A stretch of DNA of 64,000 nucleotides from Candidatus Omnitrophota bacterium. GTDB taxonomy: Bacteria > Omnitrophota > Omnitrophia > Omnitrophales > Aquincolibacteriaceae. The first letter of the stretch is position 1. Each line of letters opens with the position of its first letter. The notes below the pieces were generated by a model, which saw nothing but the letters and a program-made list of their open reading frames with translations, made no database searches and was not told where the DNA came from. Where the stretch lies: contig JBDRCT010000049.1 of NCBI GenBank assembly GCA_043821445.1, positions 3,872 to 67,871 of the forward strand, written 5' to 3'. Of the stretch, positions 4,084-23,645 are shown one piece after another. Position numbers and translations under genes: made by a program.

Positions 4084-4446
4084 ATGTTGATCCGCCAGCT
4101 CAAGGATTGTCCTGAATCCATTGCGGGAGATGCTTGTCGTCTCCGGGAACTCCTCAATGCTAAAACGGACCATCGCGCTTATCGCTACAGTCTCGCGCAT
4201 GCCGTCGTGAAACCCGGTACAAAGACCAAGCCCCATTCACTTAAAATCTCAGAGGTTTATTATATCCTGGAAGGGCAGGGGCGCATGCATGTGGACCGCG
4301 AGACTGCGGAAGTGGGTCCCGGGGCTGTGATCGATATTCCCCCAAGGGCCGTTCAATGGATCGAAAATACCGGCCAAGAAGATCTTGCTTTTCTCTGCAT
4401 CGTAGATCCCGCTTGGTGCGCGGCAGATGAAGAAATATTGAAATAA
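4084..4446 (+). CDS. cupin-domain protein
   Basis: 'YYILEGQGRMHVD...GPGAVIDIPP...WIENTGQEDLAFLCI' cupin_2-like beta-barrel motifs; start chosen at internal Met. Confidence 0.5.
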   Translation: MLIRQLKDCPESIAGDACRLRELLNAKTDHRAYRYSLAHAVVKPGTKTKPHSLKISEVYYILEGQGRMHVDRETAEVGPGAVIDIPPRAVQWIENTGQEDLAFLCIVDPAWCAADEEILK

Positions 4447-4540
4447 GGAAGGTCTTCCAAAAAACAGTTTTTCAATCCCTGACCCTTCGGATATACTCAC
4501 TTTCAATAAAACACGCCGTCATCAAATCAAAGGTGTCGAT

Positions 4541-6785
<2,245 letters not shown>

Positions 6786-6915
6786 TCCAGCCTCAATTCT
6801 TATCCATCAAAGCAGAGCGGCACTCTTTTTAATCGTTATTTTTGTTACAATTAGTTTGCCAACGAAGCTGTTTGGTGCTAGAATTCGAATCGTTCACATT
6901 TTCACGAATAGTTGA

Positions 6916-7534
6916 CATGAAAAAGATTCCTCGAAGGACGATCACGCGAGTCTTGCTTTATATCCGGACCCTGGAAACTCTGACCAAGGAAAAACGCTTT
7001 TTGATTTCCTCTGGACAGCTAGCGGACATTACGGGGCTTTCGGCGGTTCAGATCCGAAAAGACATTTCGAATTTTAAGAGCGTCGGAAAGCCAAGGGTCG
7101 GCTACCGGACGGTCGAATTGAAGAAAACGCTCGAGAATTATTTGTTGCAGGACACCACGGTCCATGTGGTGTTGTTCGGGGTGGGGAACCTCGGCTCCGC
7201 GATCTTGAAATATCCGGGGTTTCATCAAGACCAGATCCGTCTGGTGGCCGCTTTTGATGTTTCGCGTCACAAGATCGGGAAAAAGATCGAGGGTGTGAAG
7301 GTATATCCGTTGGACCGGGCGCCTGAGATCATCAAGCGGGTGCATGGCGATATCGGGATCATCGCAGTCCCGGAAAAAGGCGCCCAGGAAGTGGCGGATC
7401 ACATGGTGATCTCGGGGCTGCAAAAGATCATTAATTTCGCGCCGTGTTCGGTCAGCGTACCGGCAAGGGTGCAGATCCGTAATATTGATTTTACGATCGA
7501 GTTCTTGTCGCTTTACTGTAACACTCAAAAATGA
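6916..7534 (+). CDS. rex: redox-sensing transcriptional repressor Rex
   Basis: 'TITRVLLYIRTLE...ISSGQLADITGLSAVQIRKDISNF' wHTH N-domain + 'VVLFGVGNLGSAI' Rossmann NADH-binding domain. Confidence 0.85.
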
Positions 7535-7536
7535 CC

Positions 7537-7548
7537 GTCAATTTTGAC
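7537..7548. promoter_or_regulatory. perfect 12-bp palindrome GTCAATTTTGAC between rex and HupE-like gene (candidate operator)
   Basis: seen directly; function unassigned. Confidence 0.2.
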
Positions 7549-7571
7549 AGGGCAAGTAGGGGGAATAGAAA

Positions 7572-8225
7572 GTGACTCACGAAAGCATGATTCTCGTAAC
7601 CGCTGCATTTTCCATGGGGATCCTACACGTTATTTTAGGTCCCGATCACTATGTGCCTTTTATTGTGATGGCCAAAGCACGGCGATGGTCCTGTTTTAAA
7701 ACGGCTGTGATTACGGCGCTATGCGGCGTCGGCCACGTCGGAAGTTCCGTGGTTTTAGGGATCCTGGGGATCCATCTAGGGATCTCCTTAAAAAAACTCG
7801 TGATGTTTGAATCCGTGCGCGGTGAATGGGCGGCATGGGGACTGATCGCTTTTGGGCTGGTTTACTTTATATACGGCTTGCGGCGGGTCCTGAAGGGCCG
7901 GTTTGAGGCGCATCATCCGGACCAACAAAAACTCACGCAGTGGGTCCCCTGGACACTTTTTGTGGTCTTTGTCTTGGGTCCGTGCGAACCGTTAATTCCG
8001 GTCTTTATGTTTCCTGCCATGCAGCATGATTTGATGACCACTGCTCTTGTGACGGGAGTTTTCAGCGGCATGACGCTCCTGACGATGCTGGGGATCGTTC
8101 TGGTGTCCGTCTTCGGAATGAATTTTTTGCCATCGGTATCCGGGCAGCTTGAGCGGTATGGCCACGCGTTCGCGGGGCTTGTCATCCTCCTCTGTGGTTT
8201 CGGGGTACGGTTTTTAGGATTGTAA
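7572..8225 (+). CDS. HupE/UreJ-family membrane protein (putative Ni2+/Co2+ transporter)
   Basis: 217 aa polytopic; N-terminal 'HVILGPDH' matches H-x4-D-H HupE/UreJ signature; located upstream of [NiFe] hydrogenase. Confidence 0.55.
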   Translation: MTHESMILVTAAFSMGILHVILGPDHYVPFIVMAKARRWSCFKTAVITALCGVGHVGSSVVLGILGIHLGISLKKLVMFESVRGEWAAWGLIAFGLVYFIYGLRRVLKGRFEAHHPDQQKLTQWVPWTLFVVFVLGPCEPLIPVFMFPAMQHDLMTTALVTGVFSGMTLLTMLGIVLVSVFGMNFLPSVSGQLERYGHAFAGLVILLCGFGVRFLGL

Positions 8226-8242
8226 AAAAGAAACAGAAGTAT

Positions 8243-9280
8243 GTGATGGAAAAAGCCATTTTTCTAAAAAAATCCAAGCTGGATGATTTCCTCGGGAAGC
8301 TTTCCGAAGGTTATCGGGTCTATGTTCCCGTCAAGAAGGATGAGCAGCGCTTCTTCAGGAAATATGCCGGTCCTGCCGCGGACATCGTCATCGGCGAAAT
8401 AAGGCCTTTTGAACCGCTCAAGGCCTTTTTCACACGTTGCCGCGAAAAGGTCGCGGACGGTTTCAAGCCGGATATTCCGCATGAGAATGACAAACCCTTC
8501 GCCATCATCGGCGTCAAGGCCTGTGATCTCAAGGGGTTCAAGATCCAGGACCATGTCTTCCGGGGCCCCGATTTTCCGGATGCGTTTTACATCAAGAACC
8601 GAGAGGAGAACTTTATCGTCAGCGCGGACTGCACCTGCGCGATCGAGACTTGTTTTTGCACCGCCATGGGGATCGGCCCCCATCCGACCGAAGATTTCGA
8701 CATCAACCTCTCCGTGATCGAGGCCGGTTTTTGGGCGGATCCCGGTTCCGAAAAAGGCAGGGAATTTATCCGGAAAAATCCGTCCCTGTTCGAGCCGGCG
8801 ACGGATACACAACTTCGTGAGAAAGAAGCGCAACGGGAAAAAATCTTTCACGAGGTGGAGGGTAATGTCAGCCGGAACGAAATTCCAAAACAGGATCATT
8901 TCCAAGGCATTATCGAGCGGAATTTCAACGCCGATCTTTGGGCGGACGAAGCGAAGACCTGTGTCGAATGCGGGGCCTGTACGGTCATTTGTCCGACATG
9001 TCACTGTTTTTTGCTTTATGATCAGAAGGACGGTGAAAAAATGGCGCGTCTGCGCACCTGGGATTCCTGCATGCTCAAGGGATATGCCCGGGTCGCGGGC
9101 GGCGGGAATCCACGCGATAAATTGTTCATGCGCCTCCGGAACCGTTTTGAAAAAAAATTTGATTTTTTCCCAAAGGCCATAAATATTTATGCCTGTACCG
9201 GATGCGGCCGTTGCGTGAGCGCGTGTCCGGCGACGATCGATATTCGCAAAGTCCTAAGAAGGCTCGTGGACCATGCATAA
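8243..9280 (+). CDS. AsrA/HydB-like iron-sulfur subunit of NAD(P)H input module
   Basis: 345 aa; cysteine motifs 'CTCAIETCFC', 'CVECGACTVICPTC', 'CTGCGRCVSACP'. Confidence 0.55.
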   Translation: MMEKAIFLKKSKLDDFLGKLSEGYRVYVPVKKDEQRFFRKYAGPAADIVIGEIRPFEPLKAFFTRCREKVADGFKPDIPHENDKPFAIIGVKACDLKGFKIQDHVFRGPDFPDAFYIKNREENFIVSADCTCAIETCFCTAMGIGPHPTEDFDINLSVIEAGFWADPGSEKGREFIRKNPSLFEPATDTQLREKEAQREKIFHEVEGNVSRNEIPKQDHFQGIIERNFNADLWADEAKTCVECGACTVICPTCHCFLLYDQKDGEKMARLRTWDSCMLKGYARVAGGGNPRDKLFMRLRNRFEKKFDFFPKAINIYACTGCGRCVSACPATIDIRKVLRRLVDHA

Positions 9281-10094
9281 CGAAAATATTTACCGCCCCA
9301 TTCGGGCCGACGTGCTCGATGTGATCACGGAAACGCCTACCATCAAAACGATCCGTTTTAAACCGGCGGAGCCTATCTCATTCAGGACGGGGCAATTTGT
9401 GGAGATCACGGTTCCGGGCGTCGGTGAGGCACCGTTTACACCGTCCTCCAAGCCTTCAATCAAGGATACGATGGAAGTGAGTGTGATGAGGGTCGGGAAG
9501 GTAACACAGAAGATCCACGAGCTCAAAAAAGGCGATGTGATCGGCGTGCGCGGTCCATTCGGGGCGGGTTATCCCGTGGATCAATTCAAAGGAAAAGACC
9601 TGTTGATTGTGGGGGGAGGATGCGGTTTTGCGCCGCTCCGCAGTCTCATGTATACCCTTTTTGAGATGAGCGGGGAATTCAAGAGGTTCTATTTTCGCGG
9701 CGGTTGCAAACTTCCGACTGAATTTCTTTACCGCAAGGAGATCGAAACCTGGCAAGAGCGGAAGGACTTGAACCTCCGGCTCACGGTCGATAGGGGTGAT
9801 GAATCCTGGAAAGGAAATGTCGGTGTTGTGACGACCATTCTGAACGATCTGGATATGGATTTCAAAACCGGTATTGCCGTAGTTTGCGGCCCGCCGATCA
9901 TGATGAAATTCGGGACCAAGAAACTTCTCGAACTAGGGTTCCGGGAAGAGAACATCTACCTTTCGATGGAAAAAAACATGTCCTGCGGCCTTGGGAAGTG
10001 CGGCCACTGCCGTCTCGGGACTTATTACGCTTGCAAGGACGGGCCGGTTTTTCCCTACGCCAAGATCAAAACATTTCACGAGATCTGGGACTGA
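9273..10094 (+). CDS. AsrB/HydG(gamma)-like FAD/NAD(P)-binding oxidoreductase with C-terminal 2Fe-2S
   Basis: 273 aa; 'RTGQFVEI' FAD motif, 'LLIVGGGCGFAPLRS' NAD motif, C-terminal 'CGLGKCGHCRLG...C'. Confidence 0.65.
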   Translation: MHNENIYRPIRADVLDVITETPTIKTIRFKPAEPISFRTGQFVEITVPGVGEAPFTPSSKPSIKDTMEVSVMRVGKVTQKIHELKKGDVIGVRGPFGAGYPVDQFKGKDLLIVGGGCGFAPLRSLMYTLFEMSGEFKRFYFRGGCKLPTEFLYRKEIETWQERKDLNLRLTVDRGDESWKGNVGVVTTILNDLDMDFKTGIAVVCGPPIMMKFGTKKLLELGFREENIYLSMEKNMSCGLGKCGHCRLGTYYACKDGPVFPYAKIKTFHEIWD

Positions 10095-10095
10095 T

Positions 10096-10662
10096 ATGGA
10101 TAAGAGCGCGGAACAATTGCACCAGGGGAAAATAAATATGAGCCCGCAGAAGGGTCCGGACCAGCGGCTTTTCATCGATCTGGACGTTTGTTCGGCGGGG
10201 CAGTGCAAGGACTGCGTGATCCAGTGCAGTTATTATTATCACCGGTCAGGAGTGGGGAATAACGGGATCATCGGCTGTGCGGAGCTTGCGACTTATGTGC
10301 TTGTCTGCCGCCGGTGCGAAATGCCGCATTGTGTGAATGCATGTCCTTATGAAGCGTTGGAGCAGCAAAAGGAAAAAGGGAAACTGCTGATCCGGCACAG
10401 CATACGCTGCGTTGCCTGCAAATCCTGTTCGCACGCGTGCCCCTACGGAGCAATCTATCCGGAGAACCTCCCGCCATTGATCCACAACTGTGATTTTTGT
10501 CTGGACCGGAGGGACGACGCGAACGAACCGTTGTGCGTTAAGACCTGTTCTCACGGTGCTTTAAGTCTCAAAAGTGGGAACATACCGCTGGATGAGAAAA
10601 CTTTTTTGGTAGGGGACAATCTGATCGTCCATTCGACGCATTGGAAGTGGGAAAAAGCATGA
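10096..10662 (+). CDS. 2x[4Fe-4S] ferredoxin-like electron-transfer subunit (HycB-like)
   Basis: 'CRRCEMPHCVNACP', 'CVACKSCSHACP', 'CDFCLDRR' motifs. Confidence 0.6.
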   Translation: MDKSAEQLHQGKINMSPQKGPDQRLFIDLDVCSAGQCKDCVIQCSYYYHRSGVGNNGIIGCAELATYVLVCRRCEMPHCVNACPYEALEQQKEKGKLLIRHSIRCVACKSCSHACPYGAIYPENLPPLIHNCDFCLDRRDDANEPLCVKTCSHGALSLKSGNIPLDEKTFLVGDNLIVHSTHWKWEKA

Positions 10663-11582
10663 TGTATCTATTCTATTTCATCATGTTCGGATTTCTGGCA
10701 ACAGCCACGCTGGGTTTAGCAGCCAGCTGGATCGACCGTAAGGTTACCGCCCGGGTGCAATACCGCGTGGGACCGCCGCTTTTTCAGCCCCTGATTGACA
10801 TCGTGAAACTTTTAGGGAAAGAAACGCTTGTTCCGGCAGGGGCATCGCGAGTCGCTTTTTTTGCAGCGCCGGTTGTGGGACTCGCGAGCGTAATGCTTGC
10901 CTCGACTTTGCTTTGGATGAATGACATAAACTGGACCCGGACGTTCATCGGAGATCTGATCGTGGTGCTCTATTTATTGATGATCCCTTCGATCAGCATC
11001 ATGATGGGAGGGTTTGCGTCAAGGAATCCTCTGGCGAGCCTGGGTGCCTCCCGCGAAATGAAATTGATTTTAAGTTACGAACTTCCTTTTCTGCTTGCCG
11101 TGCTCGTCCCGGTCATTAAGTCCGGTTTTTCGATCCGGCTCGGAGATATGATGATCGCGCAGGCACAGGACGGGATCTTCGCGGCAAGCTGGTCGGGTGC
11201 CCTGGCGTTTGTGGTGTGCGTCCTTTGTGCGCAAGCGAAGCTCGGTCTTGTTCCTTTTGACATCGCGGAGGCTGAAACGGAGATCATGAGCGGGCCCTTG
11301 ATCGAATATTCCGGTTCAGGGCTTGCCATTTACCGCTTGATGAAAAACATGCTTTTATTCGTCCTCCCGTTCTTTCTGATGATCCTTTTCATGGGAGGGG
11401 CGCGGTGGGACGGGATCCATTTATTGTATGGGATCTTGAAATATGTCGGTTTGGTCGCGCTGATCACGGTGATCCGGAACACGAATCCCCGCGTCAGAAT
11501 CGATCAGGCCATCCGGTTTTTTTGGAGGCCGGTGACGGTCATGGCCATTATGGCCGTTGTGTTGGCAGTGGGGGGGTTGTAA
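10641..11582 (+). CDS. group 4 hydrogenase membrane subunit (NuoH/HycD/MbhM-like)
   Basis: 313 aa polytopic protein with NuoH-like architecture directly upstream of NuoB/C/D-like subunits. Confidence 0.65.
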   Translation: MEVGKSMMYLFYFIMFGFLATATLGLAASWIDRKVTARVQYRVGPPLFQPLIDIVKLLGKETLVPAGASRVAFFAAPVVGLASVMLASTLLWMNDINWTRTFIGDLIVVLYLLMIPSISIMMGGFASRNPLASLGASREMKLILSYELPFLLAVLVPVIKSGFSIRLGDMMIAQAQDGIFAASWSGALAFVVCVLCAQAKLGLVPFDIAEAETEIMSGPLIEYSGSGLAIYRLMKNMLLFVLPFFLMILFMGGARWDGIHLLYGILKYVGLVALITVIRNTNPRVRIDQAIRFFWRPVTVMAIMAVVLAVGGL

Positions 11583-11583
11583 G

Positions 11584-12027
11584 ATGAGCATAAAATTAAA
11601 GGCGTTACTCAGCGCGCCTTGGGTCTTCCACATGTCGACTGGCAGCTGCAACAACTGTGATATCGAGATCCTGGACTGCCTGACGCCTCGATTCGACGTA
11701 GAACGGTTCGGCATGCTGCTTGCGGGTAGTATCAAGCATGCCGATGTCCTGCTTGTAACGGGATCAATGAATCGGAAATGCATTTCAAGGGTCAAGCGGG
11801 TCTATGAGCAAATGCCGAAGCCCTGTCTTGTGGTCGCGATCGGCGAATGCTCGCTTTCACGGGGCATGTTCATCCACAGCTACAACTGTCCTGTGCCGGT
11901 CGATAAGATCATTCCGGTGGATGTTTACATTCCCGGATGCCCGCCGAAACCGGAAGCGATCATTGCGGGTGTGGTCAAACTGATCGGAAAAGTAAAAAGC
12001 GGAATAGGAAAGAAGAAAAAGAAATGA
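11584..12027 (+). CDS. [NiFe] hydrogenase small subunit (NuoB/MbhJ-like)
   Basis: 'CNNCDIE...GSMNRKC...GECS...IPGCPPKPEAI' four-Cys proximal-cluster pattern typical of group 4 small subunits. Confidence 0.8.
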   Translation: MSIKLKALLSAPWVFHMSTGSCNNCDIEILDCLTPRFDVERFGMLLAGSIKHADVLLVTGSMNRKCISRVKRVYEQMPKPCLVVAIGECSLSRGMFIHSYNCPVPVDKIIPVDVYIPGCPPKPEAIIAGVVKLIGKVKSGIGKKKKK

Positions 12028-12497
12028 CGCGCGAAGAAATTTTGAAGGACCTGAAAGAGGAGTTTAAAGGGGATATCGTCGACATTTTCGAGAAATCACC
12101 CAAGCGGGTCTATGTCGAGATCCGGCCCGGGGCGCTCGTGAAGATCGCGACCCATATCTTCAAAGGTCTGAAAGCAAGATTCAATATCGCAACAGGGACC
12201 GACCTGCGCCACTCCATGGAAATTCTTTATCACTTTACCCTTGATGACATCAACTTGGTGGTCTCCCTCAGGGTGAAATTGACGAAGCCGGATTTGGAGG
12301 TCGATTCCCTGACGCCGGTCTTCAAAGGGGCTGATTGGATCGAACGGGAGATCCATGAACTTTTGGGGATCCGTTTCAAAAATCACCCCAATTTAAAAAG
12401 ACTCCTATTGTCCGAAGAATGGCCCGAGGGTGTTTATCCTTTAAGGCAGGATTATAAAGAGTGGGATAAAAAAGCCATTCGGGACCGGGGAGTTTAG
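12024..12497 (+). CDS. hydrogenase NuoC-like (30 kDa) subunit (MbhK-like)
   Basis: size/position and NuoC-like sequence; ATG inside upstream stop region. Confidence 0.65.
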   Translation: MTREEILKDLKEEFKGDIVDIFEKSPKRVYVEIRPGALVKIATHIFKGLKARFNIATGTDLRHSMEILYHFTLDDINLVVSLRVKLTKPDLEVDSLTPVFKGADWIEREIHELLGIRFKNHPNLKRLLLSEEWPEGVYPLRQDYKEWDKKAIRDRGV

Positions 12498-12499
12498 AC

Positions 12500-13681
12500 A
12501 TGGCAAAAACGATCGTTCCCATAGGGCCCTATCATCCACTACAAGAAGAACCCGAATTTTTCACCCTGACAGTGGAAGGCGAACGGGTGGTGGAGATAGA
12601 TGTTCAGATCGGATACAACCACCGCGGAATCGAGAAGATCTCCGAGACGAAAACATTCGATCAGTCTACCTTCGCCGTCGAGAGAATATGCGGCATCTGT
12701 TCCACGAGCCATCCCGCGGCGTATACGCTGGCAGTGGAAGATATTATTCCGGTAGAGGTCCCTGAACGCGCGAAATACATTCGGACCATTGTCGCGGAAG
12801 GCGAGCGGATCCATTCACACCTTTTATGGCTCGGACTCGCGGGCCATTTCCTCGGCTACAACACGGTCTACATGTGGGCGTGGAAATTGCGCGAAGAGGT
12901 CCTGGACGTGATGGAGATCCTGTCCGGGAACAGGAATAACTACGCGATGTTCAAACCGGGCGGTGTCAGGCGCGATATCAAAGCCGAGGATATCCCCGGC
13001 GTTTTGAAGAAGATCGATTCCATCGTGCCTACCCTTCAAATGCTCCAGAAGGCCGTGATGGACGATCCCGTGCTTCATGCGCGTACCAAGGGCATTGGAG
13101 TCCTGACCAAAGAAGATGCCATCAGTTATTCTGCCCTTGGACCGACGGCGCGGGCGTCCGGTATCGCGCGCGACGTGCGCAAGGACTCCCCCTACGCTTC
13201 CTACGATAAGGTCGCATGGGACATGATTGTCCGGCATAACGGTGATGTCTTTGATAAATTAGTGATCCGTGTTCTCGAAACTTTCGAATCGATCAAGATC
13301 ATAAAATATTGCCTTACGAATTTGCCAAAAGGCGAGATCGACCTCAAGATCAAAAGTTTTCCGATCGGGGAAGGGATCGGTCACGTCGAGGCGCCGCGTG
13401 GCGAATGCTTTCATTATGTCAAAAGCGACGGAACGAACCGGCCGCTGCGCCATAAAATAAGGGCGCCGACTTACATGAATCTTCCGACTTATAAATCGAC
13501 CATTATGGGTCAAACGATTTCGGATGCGACGATCATCCTCGCGGCGATCGATCCTTGTTATTGCTGCACTGAGAGGATGGCCGTACGCGACGGAAAAGGG
13601 AAAAAACTTTTTACTGGCGAAGACCTCATCCGGCTTTCGCAGGAAAAAACCGAGAAACTCAGGGAAAAGTATGGACGCTAG
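12500..13681 (+). CDS. group 4 [NiFe] hydrogenase large subunit (NuoD/MbhL/EchE-like)
   Basis: N-terminal 'RICGICSTSHPAAY' (RxCGxCxxxH) and C-terminal 'DPCYCCTERM' (DPCxxC) Ni-Fe ligand motifs; 393 aa. Confidence 0.85.
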   Translation: MAKTIVPIGPYHPLQEEPEFFTLTVEGERVVEIDVQIGYNHRGIEKISETKTFDQSTFAVERICGICSTSHPAAYTLAVEDIIPVEVPERAKYIRTIVAEGERIHSHLLWLGLAGHFLGYNTVYMWAWKLREEVLDVMEILSGNRNNYAMFKPGGVRRDIKAEDIPGVLKKIDSIVPTLQMLQKAVMDDPVLHARTKGIGVLTKEDAISYSALGPTARASGIARDVRKDSPYASYDKVAWDMIVRHNGDVFDKLVIRVLETFESIKIIKYCLTNLPKGEIDLKIKSFPIGEGIGHVEAPRGECFHYVKSDGTNRPLRHKIRAPTYMNLPTYKSTIMGQTISDATIILAAIDPCYCCTERMAVRDGKGKKLFTGEDLIRLSQEKTEKLREKYGR

Positions 13682-15326
13682 CGGAACGTTTTTTAGATCA
13701 GATCCTCTTTCGGCTTTTGTGGCATTCTTTATTGTCTTCTTTTCCCTCCTGACAATATTTTATTCCTTAGGTTTCATGCGAGGAAAGAAGGGACTGCTTT
13801 GGTATTATCTTTATCTTATTCTCACGCTTGCCGCTTCGCTCGGTGCCGTGTTCGCCAATAATCTTGTGTTATTCATGGTATTTTGGGGAGTTCTGGGGTT
13901 CCTCCTTTATCTTTTGATCGGATTTGGAGAAAAAGAACGCACCCCTGCGACCGCCAAGAAGACATTTATCATCATCGGTGGCACGGATGCCTTGATGCTT
14001 CTCGGTCTTGCGCTTGTCTGGCAGCTGACAGGTTCGTTCCAGATGGACAAAATGAGCATCGCCTTGAATTCCAAGCTTGCCGTTTGGGCTTACCTGTGCT
14101 TTGCGGCCGGCGCATTCGCCAAAGCAGGTGCCATGCCGTTCCATACCTGGATCCCGGACACCGCCGAAGACGCACCGACGCCGGTCACGGCTTTCTTGCC
14201 GGCATCGCTTGATAAACTTTTAGGGATCTATTTTCTTGCCCGGCTTTCGTTGAGCATGTTCCAGATGAACGGGCCGATGAACACCTTTTTAATGGCGGTC
14301 GGAGCTTTTACGATCGTGGCGGCCGTTATGATGGCGCTCGTCCAACATGATCTGAAGCGGTTGCTCGGGTATCATGCCGTGAGCCAGGTCGGCTACATGG
14401 TGCTGGGGATCGGCACGGGAAATCCTATCGGGATCGCCGGCGGATTGTTTCATATGCTGAATAATGCAGTCTATAAAACCTGTCTGTTCCTGACGGGGGG
14501 GGCCGTCGAAAAGAAAACAGGGACGACCGACCTGGACAAACTCGGCGGTTTGGCAAAGATCATGCCGGTGACTTTCATTACATTTTTGATCGCGGCATTC
14601 GCTATTTCCGGTGTTCCGCCATTTAACGGTTTTGCTTCCAAATGGCTCATTTATCAGGGAATTATCGAGACAGCGAACAAAACCCGATATTTATGGATCG
14701 TGTGGCTGGTCGCGGCTATGTTCGGAAGCGCGCTGACGCTGGCAAGCTTCATGAAGCTGGTCCATGCTATTTTTTTAGGTCAGACATCCAAGGAAATGAA
14801 CCTAGCGGAAAACCAGAAAAAAGAAACCGGATTTACCATGTGGGTCCCGGCCGTTATCCTCGCGTTTCTTTGCGTCCTTTTCGGGGTCTTTTTTTATCCG
14901 ATCCCTCTAAAAATGTTCATTATCCCAAGCCTTGGGATGAATATTGAAAACTTCGGGATGTGGGATGCGGGCCTGGCGACGATTTTGATCTTCGTTGGCA
15001 TTTTGGTCGGGTTTGTGATCTACCTTTTAGGCGCGGCCGTAAAACCCAGGGAAGCCGAGGTCTTTGTCGGCGGGGAGGACTTGAAAGATCATCCGGATAT
15101 GAGAATTTCCGGGACGGAGTTCTACCGGACCGTTGAGGACATGAAGATCTTGAAACCGGTTTATCAGCTGGCAAAGGAAAAGGCCTTTGATCCCTACGAG
15201 GTGGGGGCGAAGCTCACGTTCGGTTTCAGTAAATTTTTATCCTATCTCCACAACGGCATCCTGCCGACTTATTTGGTCTGGTGCCTTTTGGGGATGGGCA
15301 TCTTATTTTACATTTTTCTGAGGTAG
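13671..15326 (+). CDS. Mrp/NuoL-like antiporter subunit (MbhH-like)
   Basis: ~550 aa polytopic, NuoL/M/N-MnhA family sequence ('HAWLPDA'-type region 'PFHTWIPDTAED'). Confidence 0.7.
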   Translation: MDASGTFFRSDPLSAFVAFFIVFFSLLTIFYSLGFMRGKKGLLWYYLYLILTLAASLGAVFANNLVLFMVFWGVLGFLLYLLIGFGEKERTPATAKKTFIIIGGTDALMLLGLALVWQLTGSFQMDKMSIALNSKLAVWAYLCFAAGAFAKAGAMPFHTWIPDTAEDAPTPVTAFLPASLDKLLGIYFLARLSLSMFQMNGPMNTFLMAVGAFTIVAAVMMALVQHDLKRLLGYHAVSQVGYMVLGIGTGNPIGIAGGLFHMLNNAVYKTCLFLTGGAVEKKTGTTDLDKLGGLAKIMPVTFITFLIAAFAISGVPPFNGFASKWLIYQGIIETANKTRYLWIVWLVAAMFGSALTLASFMKLVHAIFLGQTSKEMNLAENQKKETGFTMWVPAVILAFLCVLFGVFFYPIPLKMFIIPSLGMNIENFGMWDAGLATILIFVGILVGFVIYLLGAAVKPREAEVFVGGEDLKDHPDMRISGTEFYRTVEDMKILKPVYQLAKEKAFDPYEVGAKLTFGFSKFLSYLHNGILPTYLVWCLLGMGILFYIFLR

Positions 15327-15330
15327 AGCC

Positions 15331-15882
15331 ATGCTTTCGTTATATCTGCTTTTGGCCTTGATGATTATCGGAGCGATCGTTGCCATTGAGCTCAAAGATA
15401 TGCTTTCTTCGGCGGTGGCCGTGGGTGCGGTCGGACTCATTCTTTCCATCACGTTCCTTATGTTAAAGGCCCCGGATGTGGCCATTACCCAGCTTGTCGT
15501 GGAAATTTTATGTTTGATCATTCTGATCCGGGCGACCTTGAAAAAGGATCTTCCGTTCTCGATCACCGGCAGATGGTATTTGAACACTTTGGTCACAGGC
15601 TGTTTTATCGTTTTGTTCCTGTCGATCGCGATGAAGGCCTGCGCCGATCTTCCGCCTTTTGGTTATCCCATTATGAAGGTGGCGGAAACTTATTTGCGGG
15701 AAGGACTGCCGAAGACGGGCGCCGCCAATATCGTCGCCGCCGTCATCCTGGATTACAGGGCTTATGACACCCTGGGAGAAGCGACCGTGCTGTTTACGGC
15801 GGTGATCGGTGTTTTGGCGATCGTGCGTCGTATCGGCAGAAAACGGGAAGATACCGTTATCACGGATGAAGATGAGTCATAA
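15331..15882 (+). CDS. Mrp antiporter MnhB-like subunit
   Basis: 'NIVAAVILDYRAYDTLGEATVLFTAVIGV' MnhB signature. Confidence 0.65.
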   Translation: MLSLYLLLALMIIGAIVAIELKDMLSSAVAVGAVGLILSITFLMLKAPDVAITQLVVEILCLIILIRATLKKDLPFSITGRWYLNTLVTGCFIVLFLSIAMKACADLPPFGYPIMKVAETYLREGLPKTGAANIVAAVILDYRAYDTLGEATVLFTAVIGVLAIVRRIGRKREDTVITDEDES

Positions 15883-15894
15883 AAGGAGGGCCCC

Positions 15895-16347
15895 ATGAGC
15901 CGCGAGCAACAAGAGGGCATGTCCGTCATCGTCAAGACGATCACACGTCTTACCGTAGGGCTCATCCTGCTTTATGGGATCTACATTCTCAGCCACGGGC
16001 ATGTGTCGCCCGGCGGCGGGGGGGCGGGCGGCGTCATCATCGCGCTTTCTTTTGTCCATTTGATGCTTGCCTACGGTAAGGAGACAGCTTTTAAAAAGAT
16101 CCCCAAGGCGGCTGTTTCGTTCTTTGAGGGCATGGGCGCCATCATCTTTTTGGCGATCGCTTTGTTCGGGTTTACCAGCGGATACTTTTTCTTGAATTTC
16201 ATCTCCAAAGGGGAACCCTTCCGTTTGTTCAGCGCCGGGATCATCCCTTTGTGCAATATCGCGATCAGCTTGAAAGTGGGCGCCGGTCTTTTCGCGATCT
16301 TTGTCGCCTTAGTATTGCTAAAATTCGAATCGGAGCACAAACAATGA
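15895..16347 (+). CDS. small polytopic membrane subunit of the Mbh/Mrp module
   Basis: 150 aa, 3-4 TM helices, operon position. Confidence 0.4.
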   Translation: MSREQQEGMSVIVKTITRLTVGLILLYGIYILSHGHVSPGGGGAGGVIIALSFVHLMLAYGKETAFKKIPKAAVSFFEGMGAIIFLAIALFGFTSGYFFLNFISKGEPFRLFSAGIIPLCNIAISLKVGAGLFAIFVALVLLKFESEHKQ

Positions 16348-16682
16348 CGGCCTACATCCTTTGTCTCATGTTGTTCTGCGTGGGCATTTACGGTGTGATA
16401 AGAAAACGTAATATCATCAAGATTATTATCGGGACGATCATCGCGGAATATGCCGTGAACTTGTTTTTTATTTTGGTGTGCTACCGCATGAAGGGACGCG
16501 CCCCCATTTTTTCGCCGGACCAGTCGATCACGAACATGGTCGACGCGCTCCCGCAGGCGCTTGTTCTAACCGCCATCGTCATCGGGCTTGCGACGACCGC
16601 CATGCTGGTGGCGATCGCCATGCGGATCTATGAAAAATACGGCACCTTCGACATTACCAAGATCAGGGAGTTAAGAGGATGA
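16344..16682 (+). CDS. MnhC/NuoK-like subunit
   Basis: 112 aa, 3 TM; ATGA start/stop overlap with upstream gene. Confidence 0.55.
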   Translation: MTAYILCLMLFCVGIYGVIRKRNIIKIIIGTIIAEYAVNLFFILVCYRMKGRAPIFSPDQSITNMVDALPQALVLTAIVIGLATTAMLVAIAMRIYEKYGTFDITKIRELRG

Positions 16683-18178
16683 GCGGTCTCGTGAACCTCC
16701 TACCGTTATTTGTGGTCGTGCCGCTGGGCGGGGCTTTTTTGACCACGATCATCGGCCGCCGGGTGAAGCGGCTGCCGGACCTTGTAGGCGTGATCGCGAC
16801 CTTTTGCCTGTTCTGTTTTTCCGTCTGGGCGGTCGCTATCGTCAAACAACACGGCGTCCTTGTTTATAGCGTCGGCGCGTGGAGACCGCCGGTGGGCATC
16901 ACCCTTGTTTTGGACGCTTTGACCTCGTTCATGCTGGTGACGGTGAACACGGTCGTCTTTCTGATCGCGGTCTATTCGGTCCGGTATATGGAGCACTTTA
17001 CTTCAAAATGGAAGTTCTTCACGCTTTTTCTGTTGTTGGTAGGGGGGATGAACGGCGTGATCATTACGGGCGATCTGTTCAATCTGTTCGTGTTTTTGGA
17101 GATCGCGGCGGTCGCCAGCTATGCTCTGGTGGCCTTTGGGACTGAAAAGTACGAACTTGAAGCGGCGTTCAAATACGGCGTGATGAGTTCCGTCAGCTCG
17201 CTTTTTATCCTTTTGGGGATCGCATTCCTCTACGCCTATACCTCCACCCTGAACATGGCGGACATGGCGGCGGTTCTGTCAAAGAAGGGCCCAAACGAGA
17301 TCATCCCGATGGTATCGATCTTATTTATCATGGGGTTCGGCCTGAAGGCGGCCCTCGTTCCTTTTCACGCGTGGCTTCCGGACGCGCATCCTTCGGCCCC
17401 GGCGCCTATCTCTGCGACGCTTTCCGGCGTTCTGATCAAATCCCTTGGAGCGTATACGATTTGCAGGATCTTTTTTAATGTGATCGGATTCAGCGAAGGG
17501 GTTTCTTATGTTTTATTGGTCCTGGGAACGCTTTCCATGGTCGGGGGGGTGTTTTTAGCCGTTGGGCAATGGGACTTCAAAAGGCTTCTTGCCTATCACT
17601 CCATCAGTCAGATGGGTTATGTCATCCTGGGCATCGGCTTGGGGACGCCGCTCGGGATCCTGGGGGGCCTTTTCCATCTTTTCAACCATTCCATATTTAA
17701 ATCACTGCTTTTCTTGAACTCAGGGGCCGTGGAGTATGCCACCGGCACCCGGGACCTTCAGCGCATGGGCGGTCTTTTTAAGAAAATGCCTGTGACCGGC
17801 ACCACCAATCTTATTGCATCGATGTCGATCGCCGGCATACCGCCTTTCAACGGTTTTTGGAGCAAGCTTCTGATCATCGTGGCGTGCGTGCAGGCCGGCC
17901 GGTACGGTTTTGCTTTTTGGGCCGTATTTGCCAGCATTTTGACCCTCGCTTCTTTTATGAAAGTGATGAAATATGTTTATTACGGGAAGCTGCCCAAGGC
18001 ATTGGCCGATACGAAAGAAGTTCCCGGCTTGATGAAATTCGCCATGGTGGTCTTAGCATTTATTTGCGTGATCGGCGGACTTTTGTTCCTTCCCGGCGTT
18101 GCCGGGACGTTCCTTCAACCGGCAACGGCCGTTCTTTTGAAAGGGGTCGGGTATGCCCATTTACCCTTCATTCCATGA
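16679..18178 (+). CDS. MnhD/NuoM-like antiporter subunit
   Basis: 499 aa; 'PFHAWLPDAHPSAP' conserved NuoM/MnhD motif. Confidence 0.7.
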   Translation: MSGLVNLLPLFVVVPLGGAFLTTIIGRRVKRLPDLVGVIATFCLFCFSVWAVAIVKQHGVLVYSVGAWRPPVGITLVLDALTSFMLVTVNTVVFLIAVYSVRYMEHFTSKWKFFTLFLLLVGGMNGVIITGDLFNLFVFLEIAAVASYALVAFGTEKYELEAAFKYGVMSSVSSLFILLGIAFLYAYTSTLNMADMAAVLSKKGPNEIIPMVSILFIMGFGLKAALVPFHAWLPDAHPSAPAPISATLSGVLIKSLGAYTICRIFFNVIGFSEGVSYVLLVLGTLSMVGGVFLAVGQWDFKRLLAYHSISQMGYVILGIGLGTPLGILGGLFHLFNHSIFKSLLFLNSGAVEYATGTRDLQRMGGLFKKMPVTGTTNLIASMSIAGIPPFNGFWSKLLIIVACVQAGRYGFAFWAVFASILTLASFMKVMKYVYYGKLPKALADTKEVPGLMKFAMVVLAFICVIGGLLFLPGVAGTFLQPATAVLLKGVGYAHLPFIP

Positions 18179-18687
18179 GACCAGATAAAATAAACAGCAG
18201 GATCATTCTTTTTATCGTTGCTTTTTTAACGTGGTGTGTTTTGAACTGGCCGCCGGACTGGCAGCACCTTTTGGTAGGTTTTTTTGTGGCGGCATTTGTC
18301 ACCTATATGATCGGCGATCTTTATGTTTCTGTGCCGAGTATTTTTAAACAACCCCAGCGGTATTGGTATTTTGCGGCCCATTATCTCCCGCTTTTCATCT
18401 TGGAGTGCATCAAGGCGAACATTGATGTTGCCTACCGTGTTTTGCATCCTCAATTACCGATCAAGCCGGGGATCGTACGGATCAAGACAAAACTCAAGAC
18501 CGACACGGGGCTGACATTTTTGGCCAATACGATCACCCTGACGCCCGGGACCATGTGTGTGGATATCGATCGGGATCGCGGCATTTTATATATCCATTGG
18601 ATTCATGTGGACGCGCAGGAAGCAGAGAAGGCGACACAACTGATCGCGGGAAAATTCGAAACGATACTGGCGAAAATATTTGGATAA
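18175..18687 (+). CDS. MnhE-like subunit
   Basis: 170 aa, N-terminal 2 TM, ATGA overlap with upstream gene. Confidence 0.5.
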   Translation: MRPDKINSRIILFIVAFLTWCVLNWPPDWQHLLVGFFVAAFVTYMIGDLYVSVPSIFKQPQRYWYFAAHYLPLFILECIKANIDVAYRVLHPQLPIKPGIVRIKTKLKTDTGLTFLANTITLTPGTMCVDIDRDRGILYIHWIHVDAQEAEKATQLIAGKFETILAKIFG

Positions 18688-18705
18688 GCAGGAAGGGAAA
18701 GGAAG

Positions 18706-19074
18706 ATGAAAATGCTCAGGTGGTTCATAGGCACGGTGGCTCTTGCCGGCACCGTGGCACTCATTATCATTTATCCGCTCCCGTTTTTGTTCTATCCCGA
18801 TCTTCCCCATGTTGGATTTGTCGGCAGGGCCCTCTATATCGTTATTTTAAGCTGCTTCCTTTGTTTTTACAGGATCGCACGGGGGCCTTCGGGCGCCGAC
18901 CGGATCGTCGCGGTCGATATTCTGGGGATCATGCTCGTGGGTTTATGCGCAGTGCTCACCATTGCAACACGTCGTTCCTGGTATATTGACATCGGCATTG
19001 CCTGGGCCCTGCAAAGCTTCATCAGCACACTCGCGCTTTCCAAGTATCTGGAAGGAAAGGATTTCGATGAATGA
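18706..19074 (+). CDS. MnhF-like subunit
   Basis: 122 aa, 3 TM, operon position. Confidence 0.45.
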   Translation: MKMLRWFIGTVALAGTVALIIIYPLPFLFYPDLPHVGFVGRALYIVILSCFLCFYRIARGPSGADRIVAVDILGIMLVGLCAVLTIATRRSWYIDIGIAWALQSFISTLALSKYLEGKDFDE

Positions 19075-19402
19075 GACCCTTGGCTTAGTATTGATCGGCA
19101 TCGGGTTGGCCTTTGACCTTTTTGGGTGTCTAGGGCTTATCCGTCTTCCCGACGTTTATAACCGTCTGCAGGCGGCGACGAAATGCGTCACCGTAGGAAC
19201 TTGCAGCATTCTTTTTGGGACTTTTCTGATCATGGGATTTACCGCCGCAGGGCTGAAATCGATCTTGTGCATATGGTTTCTGGTCTTGGCTTCCCCCGTG
19301 GCAGCCCATGCCTTGGCGAGAGGCGCCCATCGTGCCGGTATTAAACTTTGGGAAAAAAGCGTGGTGGACCAGTATGCCGAGGACGGGGAAGGAAAAAAAT
19401 AA
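19067..19402 (+). CDS. MnhG-like subunit
   Basis: 'LGLVLIGIGLAFDLFGCLGLIRLPDVYNRLQAATK' MnhG signature. Confidence 0.6.
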   Translation: MNETLGLVLIGIGLAFDLFGCLGLIRLPDVYNRLQAATKCVTVGTCSILFGTFLIMGFTAAGLKSILCIWFLVLASPVAAHALARGAHRAGIKLWEKSVVDQYAEDGEGKK

Positions 19403-19405
19403 ATC

Positions 19406-20023
19406 ATGAGATTTCCATTACCGAAACTCCGGGAAGTGGTCGAGGCGGTGAAGGCGCTTATCGTAGGGCCTTACACCTCGAAGTTTCCTAAGGAACCACA
19501 TGTGCCGCATCCTAATTTCCGCGGCCAGCCCAAGTATAACGAGCAAAAATGCGTGGGCTGTCTAGCGTGTGTCGAGGTTTGTCCCGTCCAGGCACTCGAT
19601 TATAAAGATGACACCAGCGATCCTAAAGCGGCTAAAAGAACCATGATCCATTACACGGACACCTGCATTTTCTGCAGTCAGTGTGAGGCGGCTTGCATTG
19701 CGGACCATCAGGGGATCAAGGCCTCCACAGATTGGGAACTCTCCTTTTTCGACCGGAAAGCGGCATTCGAAACGATCGAGAAAGAATTGCAGCTTTGCGA
19801 GATTTGCGGAGTGACGGTCGCTTGCAAGGATCATTTGAAATGGATTGCCGAAAAACTCGGAGAATTATCCTATTCCAGCCCCACACTTTATCAATCACGT
19901 CTTCAGGACCTCGGGGTCATCGATGAGAATCTCAAGTCCGCATTGAAAGACAACGGCCGTTCCGATCGTGTCAAGATCCTCTGCGCGCCGTGCCGCCGGA
20001 AGACAACGCTCACGACCGAATAA
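19406..20023 (+). CDS. 2x[4Fe-4S] ferredoxin subunit (NuoI/MbhN-like)
   Basis: 'CVGCLACVEVCP' and 'CIFCSQCEAAC' motifs. Confidence 0.6.
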   Translation: MRFPLPKLREVVEAVKALIVGPYTSKFPKEPHVPHPNFRGQPKYNEQKCVGCLACVEVCPVQALDYKDDTSDPKAAKRTMIHYTDTCIFCSQCEAACIADHQGIKASTDWELSFFDRKAAFETIEKELQLCEICGVTVACKDHLKWIAEKLGELSYSSPTLYQSRLQDLGVIDENLKSALKDNGRSDRVKILCAPCRRKTTLTTE

Positions 20024-20057
20024 ACCAATATTGCTTTTTCTTGGGATCCCGGCCAAT

Positions 20058-20519
20058 ATGGAAGATCTTTTAATCCCCATTCTCAAAGGAAAGACCGTGA
20101 TCGTCGGCATCGGGAACCCGCTTCGCGGGGACGATGGTGTTGGGCCGTACCTTGTGGAAATTCTCCAGGGTAGGGTCAATGCTGTTTGTATCGATGCCGG
20201 GACGGCGCCCGAAAGTTACATCGGAAAGATTTTGAAGGAGTTCCCGGATACGGTACTGATCGTGGATGCCGTACACCTAGGGCTTGAGGCGGGCGCGTGT
20301 CAGGTCCTGGAGGGGGACGAGATCTTGAAAAGCGGTCTTACCACCCATGACCTTTCGCCGCGGATGTTCATGGACCATCTGAGGCAGGGAAGCAGGGCCC
20401 GGATCTACATGCTGGGGGTTCAGCCCCAAAGGGTCCTCTTCGGGGACGCTATGTCCGGATCGGTAAAAAAAACAACGGAACAACTGGCCGCAGCAATTAC
20501 GGAGGTGCTGGGTGCATGA
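20058..20519 (+). CDS. hycI: hydrogenase maturation endopeptidase (HycI/HyaD family)
   Basis: 'VIVGIGNPLRGDDGVGPYLVEIL' signature. Confidence 0.75.
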   Translation: MEDLLIPILKGKTVIVGIGNPLRGDDGVGPYLVEILQGRVNAVCIDAGTAPESYIGKILKEFPDTVLIVDAVHLGLEAGACQVLEGDEILKSGLTTHDLSPRMFMDHLRQGSRARIYMLGVQPQRVLFGDAMSGSVKKTTEQLAAAITEVLGA

Positions 20520-20754
20520 AACACATTTAATCGAACCGATCATCAAGGGGATCTCGGAGCACGCGAAAAAAGAGGGCGCTCGTTCCGTGTCCAAGGTCCA
20601 TATCAAGGTCGGCCTGTTGACCGGCGTCAAGGAAGAATCTTTCAGAGAAACCTTCGCGGTGCTTGCTAAGGGAACGATGCTTGAGAACGCCGAGATAGAA
20701 CTGACATTCTTTCCGGGCACCATCATCCAGATTCTTTCCTTCGCTATCGAGTAG
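20512..20754 (+). CDS. HypA-like N-terminal (Ni-binding MHE) domain, lacking the C-terminal Zn-finger
   Basis: 'MHETHLIEPIIKGISEHAKKEGARSVSKVHIKVGLLTGV' resembles HypA N-terminus; no CxxC...CxxC; 80 aa. Confidence 0.45.
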   Translation: MHETHLIEPIIKGISEHAKKEGARSVSKVHIKVGLLTGVKEESFRETFAVLAKGTMLENAEIELTFFPGTIIQILSFAIE

Positions 20755-20759
20755 ACGCC

Positions 20760-23567: not shown

Positions 23568-23572
23568 GGGAT

Positions 23573-23645
23573 CGGGACTCGCTCCTCGCGCCTCGGGACT
23601 CGTAAAAACGAAGAGCCCAAACGAGTCCCTAGTCCCGTTTTTTTA
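23573..23645 (+). terminator. rho-independent terminator (compound hairpin CGGGACTCG...CGAGTCCCTAGTCCCG + T7)
   Basis: direct+inverted copies of CGGGACTCG followed by TTTTTTT. Confidence 0.5.

Follow-up and report, generated by a model that had tools for sequence, protein, structure and literature searches.

The DNA analysed here, a stretch of 64,000 nucleotides from contig JBDRCT010000049.1 of a Candidatus Omnitrophota bacterium (assembly GCA_043821445.1; the whole stretch is called the window below), carries one tightly packed operon of 22 genes and ~16.7 kb on the + strand (6917-23567), which runs from rex to a HydG gene and contains the genes of a group 4 [NiFe] hydrogenase, an Mrp-type set of membrane subunits and a flavoprotein pair related to sulfhydrogenase. 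We consider it somewhat more likely than not that the products form one membrane complex, in which a hydrogenase of the formate hydrogenlyase (FHL)/Mbh type is joined to a sulfhydrogenase-type dehydrogenase for NAD(P)H (reduced nicotinamide adenine dinucleotide or its phosphate) as input module. The most economical reading of such a complex would be an ion-translocating NAD(P)H:H+ oxidoreductase that can run in both directions. We infer complex formation, the electron path, NAD(P)H as substrate, the direction and the ion coupling from the genes, and the coupling to NAD(P)H appears well supported by homology and synteny.

Genes were called from a list of open reading frames (ORFs) and their translations and assigned by Pfam, NCBIfam and PDB sequence searches (Table 1). 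The large subunit and nine further proteins of the region have identical counterparts in the Prokaryotic Genome Annotation Pipeline (PGAP) annotation (MFH1801033-MFH1801054). An initial annotation of this DNA had described a unit from 7572 to 20023; all the genes listed there are present on the + strand with significant Pfam or NCBIfam family matches, apart from the label given to the first one, but the operon is longer, with rex (6917-7534) at its 5' end and hycI, hypA, a HypC::HydE-like fusion and HydG (20058-23567) at its 3' end. Gaps of at most 43 nt separate the genes throughout 7572-23567. The several ATGA stop/start overlaps that had been claimed proved to be five exact ones, next to three overlaps of 8 nt and one of 11 nt. 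A terminator scan found no credible internal terminator on the + strand, only weak intragenic hairpins, whose number (37 versus 26.5 +/- 5.3 in shuffled sequences) was not clearly above expectation. The AsrAB-like genes of the flavoprotein pair therefore do not form a transcription unit of their own: no credible + strand terminator parts them from the hydrogenase genes, their junctions are tight or overlapping, and their order is kept in ~75 species.

Its motifs and closest matches place the large subunit firmly in group 4 of the [NiFe] hydrogenases, and the possibility that it might fall outside this group, which the initial annotation had raised, was not borne out. Its sequences RICGICSTSH and DPCYCCTER, which hold both CxxC motifs, align with the nickel-binding motifs of MbhL and HycE, and its best PDB matches, both over the whole length, are Pyrococcus furiosus MbhL (6cfw_L, 5.3e-88) and Escherichia coli HycE (7z0s_E, 4.7e-86). 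Homologues of the complex I subunit NuoD scored lower and matched without the C-terminal part. The solved relatives of groups 4d and 4a thus score almost equally, and the published HydDB call for Mrp-linked enzymes of Omnitrophota (PMC8542988, PMC10066038) is 4g, a loosely clustered uncharacterised class. Among the Omnitrophota listed, the large subunit is 90-95% identical to the two nearest relatives and 82-86% identical to most others. A C-terminal extension of 33 residues after DPCYCCTER aligns to the extension of HycE and matches the presence of a gene for a HycI-type protease downstream, which would cut it off. The NuoB-like small subunit has four cysteines (GSCNNC, GEC, GCPP), matching one proximal [4Fe-4S] cluster.

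The two genes that precede this core encode a beta-like iron-sulfur protein and a gamma-like flavoprotein. Among solved structures, the two have strong matches only in sulfhydrogenase I (SHI) of P. furiosus, namely its beta and gamma subunits. The beta-like protein matches 9nez_B over residues 7-341 (1.6e-43) with the cysteine motifs kept, and the gamma-like protein matches 9nez_C over residues 1-265 (3.8e-57) with the GGxGxxP and CGxGxCGxC motifs kept. The latter protein has a flavin adenine dinucleotide (FAD) domain, an NAD(P)H site with the sequence GGGCGFAP and the [2Fe-2S] motif CGLGKCGHC...C. NCBIfam ranks the pair between ShyB/HydB/AsrA and AsrB/HydG/ShyC, and every score falls well short of its equivalog cut-off (182 against 690 and 192 against 650), so the pair forms a separate clade of its family. 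In agreement with this, group-4-linked proteins share no more than 27-31% (beta) and 39-44% (gamma) identity with those from group 3b clusters in related metagenomic loci. The lack of AsrC, and scores for AsrA and AsrB that stay under the equivalog cut-offs, led us to reject an assignment to the sulfite reductase AsrABC; neither the window operon nor 80 related loci contain a gene for an AsrC-like siroheme subunit. Subunits of group 3 hydrogenases are absent from the operon as well, and the partners of the pair are group 4 subunits.

Two further iron-sulfur proteins could link the flavoprotein pair to the core. The proposed connector, encoded directly behind the pair with an alternative start at 10096, has four cysteine motifs and thus up to four [4Fe-4S] clusters; its PDB matches are FdnH, HycB3/4 and HycB, that is, members of the DmsB/FdnH/HycB family. 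The NuoI-like subunit is nearer to HycF (9.8e-18) than to MbhN (6cfw_N, 1.1e-10). A connector of the HycB/DmsB type and a NuoI-like subunit nearest to HycF suggest that the peripheral arm is FHL-like, with the beta/gamma pair in the place of FdhF.

Seven Mrp-like subunits had been expected for the membrane arm. All types from A to G are indeed present, but they are spread over eight genes (13671-19402), two of which encode antiporter-like pumps. The first pump matches MbhH from chain residue 80 onward (6cfw_H, 6.6e-54), aligns with NuoL and MrpA likewise only from about residue 80 of those proteins, and has ~70 N-terminal residues, roughly the first transmembrane helices, fewer than MbhH, NuoL and MrpA. 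This short form is common to the relatives (549-551 amino acids). The start of its gene overlaps the stop of the large-subunit gene by 11 nt.

A scan with the beta-like protein, with one genome per species, yielded 80 loci (numbered with an L below) at 51-78% identity, which were searched by tblastn with the full set of window proteins. With hardly an exception among the loci that are long enough to show it, and in ~75 species-level genomes, the genes for beta, gamma, ferredoxin, NuoH, NuoB, NuoC, large subunit, MrpA-like, MbhDE, MnhB, NuoK, MrpD, MnhE, MrpF and MnhG stand in this order. The three extra redox subunits (beta-like, gamma-like and HycB-like) precede the core in all informative loci. 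Conversely, every locus retrieved with the large subunit contains the beta/gamma pair and keeps the order from beta to the Mrp genes. A gene for a formate dehydrogenase (Fdh)-like or molybdopterin protein was found neither in the window nor in the 80 loci. The carriers are mostly Omnitrophota, including bins labelled 'Planctomycetia', and otherwise belong to Elusimicrobia, Atribacterota, Spirochaetota, Nitrospirota, Nitrospinaceae, Methylomirabilales, Binatia and Desulfococcus; a cultured carrier of the operon is Desulfosarcina variabilis str. Montpellier, in which it lies at ~6.089-6.110 Mb of NZ_CP159846.1 (L064).

Other arrangements were also seen among these loci. In most of the Spirochaetota loci, namely L058, L070, L073, L076 and L077, the Mrp block lies upstream and is divergently transcribed. 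Where the downstream region is visible in Spirochaetota, including L078, L080 and L081, the large-subunit gene is followed directly by the NuoI-like gene and then, in most, by hycI; in L078 and L081 the genes for NuoH and the Mrp subunits are located downstream and read in the same direction. In the Latescibacterota loci L010 and L027, Mrp-type genes come after the beta-like gene, and neither a gamma gene nor a hydrogenase core was detectable. A second, divergent beta/gamma-like pair (27-37% identity) is located a few kb upstream in L043 (85-1900) and upstream of the beta-like gene in L067 and L068.

The initial annotation had suggested a check for Rex operators, and comparative evidence for control of the operon by this redox-sensing repressor is good. 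The rex gene heads the operon, as it adjoins the operon in many related loci, and the single strong promoter-like site, the best-scoring one in 4400-24300, lies 5' of rex and is kept in L002. The candidate operator TCGTTCACATTTTCACGA starts 6 nt past the -10 hexamer, the classic position of a repressor site, and the start site of the best promoter falls within this variant Rex box. The window's subtype of Rex also occurs in L002, L005 and L021, and the variant ATCGTTCnnnnTTTCACGA is found at the same position in all four loci with this subtype, which carry ATCGTTC-n4-TTTCACGA there within unrelated flanks. A scan of the window for canonical Rex boxes with at most three mismatches gave two sites, neither of them near the operon and no more than expected by chance. 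Among the related loci, 29 of 77 have a canonical box (at most two mismatches) in the ~300 nt that precede rex or the beta-like gene, or in the interval between these two genes, compared with 0.9% of random 310-nt windows.

In the mechanism that we propose, NAD(P)H would replace formate dehydrogenase or free ferredoxin as the electron source. Electrons would pass from NAD(P)H to the FAD and [2Fe-2S] cluster of the gamma-like protein, to the iron-sulfur clusters of the beta-like protein and to the four-cluster HycB-like connector, and from there via the HycF/NuoI-like subunit and the NuoB-like small subunit to the Ni-Fe site, where protons would be reduced to H2. The reaction is near equilibrium and uphill toward H2 when H2 is high, so that coupling to an ion gradient is thermodynamically sensible in either direction. 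The NuoH-like subunit, the two antiporter-like pumps and the full Mrp set would couple it to the movement of H+ or Na+. While H2 is low, a small gain of energy could be possible for the enzyme. When H2 is higher, the ion gradient would drive NAD(P)H oxidation with release of H2, and the opposite direction would make the complex an energy-conserving H2:NAD(P)+ oxidoreductase.

Directly 5' of the rex promoter lies an NfnAB/Sud-type pair (4541-6785), which consists of an FAD/NAD/2Fe-2S small subunit and a GltD-like large subunit of an NADH-dependent ferredoxin:NADP+ oxidoreductase; NfnAB-like genes also flank the related Rex/HydG/[NiFe] clusters L092, L095, L097 and L099. This pair would channel NADH and reduced ferredoxin into NADPH, and its position hints at NADPH as the nucleotide used by the hydrogenase. 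Rex would repress the operon until the NADH/NAD+ ratio rises. Rex control and the neighbouring NfnAB genes suggest that the main physiological role is probably the disposal of excess reductant as H2.

The initial annotation had proposed NAD(P)H-linked, ion-translocating H2 metabolism, a plausible interpretation that our results support in part. For the NAD(P)H link speaks the full-length homology of the flavoprotein pair to the NADPH-oxidising beta and gamma subunits of SHI, while the coupling itself is deduced from the genes, and several points weigh against the proposal. Reduction of protons by NAD(P)H is endergonic under standard conditions (E0' of -414 versus -320 mV), which makes the direction dependent on conditions. 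Rex also controls ferredoxin-dependent hydrogenases elsewhere, so that NAD(P)H as substrate is unproven by Rex control, and the box in the window is degenerate, with four mismatches to the canonical TTGTGAAnnnnTTCACAA, and not significant alone. Ferredoxin could still feed the HycB-like and HycF-like subunits, and PMC8542988 and PMC10066038 read the 'group 4g' Mrp-linked enzymes of Omnitrophota as ferredoxin-coupled.

If ferredoxin were the main donor, as in Pyrococcus Mbh, the beta/gamma pair would form a side branch, and the complex would be either a hybrid of a hydrogenase and an Rnf- or Mbx-like ion-translocating ferredoxin:NAD(P)+ oxidoreductase or an enzyme that confurcates electrons from ferredoxin and NAD(P)H to H2. 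We regard this as possible but doubtful. It accords with the fact that the step from NAD(P)H to H2 normally yields too little driving force for ions to be pumped against a gradient. The HycF/NuoI-like protein corresponds to the ferredoxin-docking subunit of Mbh, as its match to 6cfw_N indicates, and close relatives fall into HydDB group 4g, described as 'putatively ferredoxin-coupled' (PMC8542988, PMC10066038, PMC5037454). A 2026 survey also proposed bifurcation or confurcation for group 4b clusters with homologues of SHI-beta/gamma (PMC13582414). However, this published idea concerned clusters with a third, Fdh-like branch that is absent here, and Pfam and NCBIfam revealed no recognised bifurcating flavin site in the operon, which encodes a single flavoprotein, the gamma subunit of the simple PyrK/AsrB type. 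A dedicated donor enzyme, and not free ferredoxin, moreover takes the HycB position in FHL (7z0s matches), and the presence of the beta/gamma pair in every locus argues that it is the primary partner.

The pair, with or without the HycB-like ferredoxin, might instead be a separate soluble oxidoreductase that is merely co-transcribed with a ferredoxin-dependent Mbh-Mrp hydrogenase, for example a sulfite or polysulfide reductase remaining from AsrABC or a sulfhydrogenase. The best score of the gamma-like protein, which is to AsrB, the match of the beta-like protein to AsrA and the S0-reductase activity of sulfhydrogenase (literature cited in PMC8542988) are compatible with this idea. We nevertheless think it quite improbable, given the missing AsrC and group 3 subunits, the scores below the AsrA/AsrB equivalog cut-offs and the distinct clade of the group-4-linked pair described above, and given that order and tight spacing, including the ATGA overlap of the connector and NuoH-like genes, are kept in ~75 species of several phyla. 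An uptake system, in which oxidation of H2 would reduce NAD(P)+ with ion pumping and feed acetogenesis of the Wood-Ljungdahl type, shares its mechanism with the NAD(P)H-linked enzyme that we favour, run in reverse, and differs in physiological direction only. Reduction of NAD(P)+ by H2 is exergonic under standard conditions. Many Omnitrophota with 'group 4g' enzymes are predicted acetogens (PMC10066038). Derepression at high NADH, however, suits the disposal of reductant better than its generation, and we give the uptake direction little credence.

Table 1. Features of the operon and its 5' neighbours in the window
Feature	Position	Strand	Main evidence
nfnA-like	4541-5368	+	PRK06222 2.5e-123 (Pfam/NCBIfam)
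nfnB-like	5370-6785	+	gltA-type 3.2e-173 (Pfam/NCBIfam)
Sigma-70-type promoter TTGCCA, 17-nt spacer, TGcTAGAAT (extended -10)	6856-6884	+	10/12 matches plus TG extension
Candidate Rex-box-like operator TCGTTCACATTTTCACGA	6890-6907	+	Starts 6 nt past -10 hexamer, ends 9 nt before rex ATG
rex, redox-sensing (NADH/NAD+) repressor	6917-7534	+	NCBIfam Rex 2.9e-60; Put_DNA-bind_N and CoA_binding; MFH1801033.1
Six-transmembrane NicO/RcnA/TauE-like (DsbD_2 superfamily) protein, putative Ni/Co transporter	7572-8225	+	Homologues PF13386
SHI-beta/AsrA-like iron-sulfur subunit	8246-9280	+	Fer4_22 5.5e-30; ShyB 1.2e-53; HydB 4.6e-46; AsrA 6.4e-39
SHI-gamma/AsrB-like flavoprotein	9273-10094	+	FAD_binding_6, NAD_binding_1, DHODB_Fe-S_bind; AsrB 2e-72
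HycB/CooF/DmsB-type ferredoxin, proposed connector	10138-10662	+	Fer4_11 6e-16
NuoH/MbhM/HycD-like membrane subunit	10659-11582	+	NADHdh 4.5e-64; ATGA overlap with preceding gene
NuoB-like hydrogenase small subunit	11584-12027	+	Oxidored_q6 6.9e-29
NuoC/MbhK-like subunit	12024-12497	+	Complex1_30kDa 1.1e-26
[NiFe] large subunit, group 4	12500-13681	+	Pfam NiFeSe_Hases and Complex1_49kDa
First antiporter-like pump, MrpA/NuoL/MbhH-like, 551 amino acids	13671-15326	+	Proton_antipo_M 1.2e-58
Fused MbhD+MbhE-like (equivalent to MrpA C-terminus and MrpB N-terminus)	15331-15882	+	MbhD 9.5e-16, MbhE 7.8e-12
MnhB/MbhF-like	15895-16347	+	MnhB 8.4e-22
MnhC/NuoK/MbhG-like	16344-16682	+	Oxidored_q2 5.6e-26
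Second antiporter-like pump, MrpD/MbhH-like	16679-18178	+	Proton_antipo_M 5.2e-68; NCBIfam MrpD-type 1.2e-117
MnhE/MbhA-like	18175-18687	+	MNHE 1.1e-45
MrpF/MbhB-like	18706-19074	+	MrpF_PhaF 4.3e-17
MnhG/MbhC-like	19067-19402	+	PhaG_MnhG_YufB 3.1e-23
NuoI/HycF-like 2x[4Fe-4S] subunit	19406-20023	+	HycF 7z0s_F 9.8e-18; NCBIfam FHL iron-sulfur subunit 5.2e-25
HycI-type large-subunit C-terminal endopeptidase	20058-20519	+	TIGR00142 1.4e-33; Pfam HycI
Short HypA, 80 amino acids, nickel-insertion metallochaperone	20512-20754	+	Pfam HypA 2.2e-15
HypC domain fused to HydE-like radical-SAM/BATS enzyme	20760-22067	+	Pfam HupF_HypC, Radical_SAM and BATS
HydG radical-SAM tyrosine lyase (CO/CN synthase of [FeFe] maturation)	22068-23567	+	TIGR03955 463 bits, cut-off 312

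The 3' end of the operon encodes maturation proteins, among them two radical S-adenosylmethionine (SAM) enzymes of types known from [FeFe] hydrogenase maturation. A short HypA occurs at the same position in L082, L083 and L111. The HypC::HydE-like fusion scores 236 bits against the HydE model TIGR03956, below the cut-off of 254.6; it has the N-terminus MCYAIPGK with Cys2, and its radical-SAM cysteines are kept. At least 120 homologous protein clusters share this architecture, and MCYAIPG is invariant at the N-terminus in 116 of 120. The HydG of the window matches that of Thermoanaerobacter italicus (4wcx_A, 5.3e-135), with the C-terminal motif CX2CX22C replaced by FCTAGYRCGRTGKC-x13-C (23270-23400, residues ~405-445). 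This variant is kept in HydG relatives at 60-88% identity, including one beside HydF/HydE in L107, whereas the canonical motif is retained by the ~40% identical HydG paralogues that neighbour the fusion in loci of the group 3b type.

We compared the loci with the fusion (window 20760-23567, L082-L105, L107-L109 and L111). In every informative locus found, the fusion gene stands at the end of a [NiFe] cluster, directly behind the gene for a HycI-type protease, which hypA usually accompanies. The cluster is either the group 4 operon described here or a group 3b-like one with the order beta-gamma-delta-alpha. The fusion gene is in turn followed by the gene for a HydG-type enzyme, often with rex in between. 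An exception is one complete Omnitrophota genome, which has HypA, HypF (C-terminal part), HypC, HypD and HypE at the position of the fusion. Of the complete Omnitrophota genomes, CP070797 and CP070684 are examples that carry the fusion, and CP070837 does not have it. One fusion locus also carries canonical HydF-HydG-HydE. The fusion can thus occur together with maturases of the [FeFe] type, and co-location alone is no proof of a role in [NiFe] maturation.

A speculative and rather unlikely reading of this end of the operon is that HydG makes CO and CN from tyrosine and passes an Fe-carbonyl-cyanide unit to the HypC::HydE-like fusion; such a radical-SAM route would partly replace the chemistry of HypE and HypF and supply the CO ligand anaerobically. 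Fusion and HydG thereby bear on the old question of where the CO ligand of [NiFe] hydrogenases comes from under anoxic conditions. Our literature searches found no publications on a HypC-HydE fusion or on HydG in [NiFe] maturation, and the HypC::radical-SAM fusion in [NiFe] clusters may be a more novel lead than the NAD(P)H module.

The gene between rex and the flavoprotein pair (7572-8225) had been labelled HupE/UreJ, a name that does not hold. Its product has no HupE_UreJ match, indeed no Pfam match even at E=0.1 and no NCBIfam match, and is hypothetical in PGAP. Its homologues fall into PF13386 (DsbD_2), and their names differ between sources: TauE/SafE, NicO or RcnA. Invariant in an alignment of 36 homologues are H19, G23-P-D-H26, H55 and G136-P-C-E-P-L-I-P143, and with them the motifs H-x3-GPDH and GH-x2-SS; a histidine-rich loop that is long in most homologues is shortened in the window protein. 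The invariant His, GPDH and GPCEP motifs and the histidine-rich loop of the relatives make a role in nickel or cobalt transport plausible. Among the related loci, only the nearest relative, L002, has a NicO/RcnA-like gene at the front of the operon. A NicO/RcnA-like homologue with 43% identity is encoded in the group 3b-type cluster of L084 (7662-8354), where its gene separates that of the HypC fusion from that of HydG.

Two features of the window lie outside the operon and its immediate neighbourhood. A single ORF of 5,802 amino acids (35223-52631) encodes HEAT repeats with embedded adenylate-kinase and guanylate-kinase domains. Giant ORFs are a known, unexplained feature of Omnitrophota (PMC10066038), and this one fits an Omnitrophota origin; kinase domains within such an ORF seem unusual. 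Two adjacent genes encode class I aminoacyl-tRNA synthetases of the Glu/Gln type, one at 237-1517 (426 amino acids, Anticodon_2) and one at 1988-3676 (562 amino acids, similar to glutaminyl-tRNA synthetase).

To our knowledge, soluble [FeFe] hydrogenases, which confurcate electrons, offer the only well-established route from NAD(P)H to H2. A [NiFe] hydrogenase that is linked to NAD(P)H and coupled to an ion gradient would, if our reading is true, be a second solution to this uphill reaction. Metabolic models of the ubiquitous uncultured Omnitrophota book the enzyme as ferredoxin-dependent and may thus mis-assign electron flow. The architecture without Fdh is the simplest case for a biochemical proof of NAD(P)H coupling, and the cultured carrier D. 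variabilis makes the hypothesis directly testable.

Among known systems, P. furiosus Mbh (group 4d, 6CFW) provides the best solved relative of the large subunit and has equivalents in the window as MbhA-H and MbhJ-N; the likeness covers the Mrp-derived module and the NuoH-like, NuoB-like small and NuoC-like subunits. Mbh differs in that it uses free ferredoxin as donor and has one antiporter-like pump, whereas the window operon adds the beta/gamma module, the connector with four clusters and a further antiporter-like subunit that is short at its N-terminus, and its NuoI-like protein is nearer to HycF. E. coli FHL-1 (group 4a, 7Z0S) resembles the window enzyme in the large subunit (4.7e-86) with its C-terminal extension, in the HycI-type protease and in the iron-sulfur wire of HycB-like and HycF-like proteins that leads from a soluble donor enzyme. 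In the window operon, by contrast, the flavoprotein pair stands in place of FdhF, the NuoC-like protein is not fused to the large subunit and a whole Mrp set is present. P. furiosus SHI (group 3b, 9NEZ) shares full-length beta/gamma homology and the motifs for clusters, FAD/NAD(P)H and [2Fe-2S], but its partners are soluble alpha and delta subunits and not a membrane-bound group 4 enzyme.

The idea of an NAD(P)H module has been anticipated (PMC6349859, PMC13582414), and the family is abundant in public genomes and uncharacterised. Matheus Carnevali et al. (PMC6349859) described an 'enigmatic' group 4 cluster of Saganbacteria RX5A with asrA-, asrB- and cooF-like genes, a molybdopterin protein and Mrp subunits, suggested an oxidoreductase module and noted the nearest sequences in Zixibacteria and Omnitrophica. 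More recently, SHI-beta/gamma homologues were reported in group 4b clusters with a degenerate Fdh, and NADPH-linked bifurcation was proposed (PMC13582414, 2026). These clusters and that of RX5A agree with the window in having AsrA-, AsrB- and CooF-like genes beside an Mrp-linked group 4 hydrogenase; they differ in the molybdopterin (Fdh-like) third branch, of which there is none in the ~75 loci of the window clade. The 'group 4g, Mrp-linked' hydrogenases of Omnitrophota (available parts of PMC8542988 and PMC10066038) share the phylum and the Mrp-linked membrane [NiFe] type; they were given a ferredoxin-dependent model, and those parts make no mention of a beta/gamma module, Rex or radical-SAM maturation genes. 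Other papers on metagenome-assembled genomes likewise file Mrp-linked enzymes as 4g and ferredoxin-driven.

Complex I, finally, has a homologous Q-module (NuoB/C/D/I), NuoH, antiporter-like subunits and an input for nicotinamide nucleotides at the tip of its iron-sulfur wire. It differs in its quinone acceptor and in the flavin mononucleotide-containing NuoF of NuoEFG, whereas in the window the acceptor would be H+ at the Ni-Fe site and the flavoprotein is an FAD protein of the PyrK/AsrB type, in a module unrelated to NuoEFG. If the enzyme is an NAD(P)H:H+ oxidoreductase that is driven by, or generates, an Na+ or H+ gradient, it would amount to a 'complex I for protons' that was assembled independently, and to a living example of the addition of a nicotinamide-nucleotide module to an Mbh/Mrp-type machine, the step thought to have given rise to complex I.

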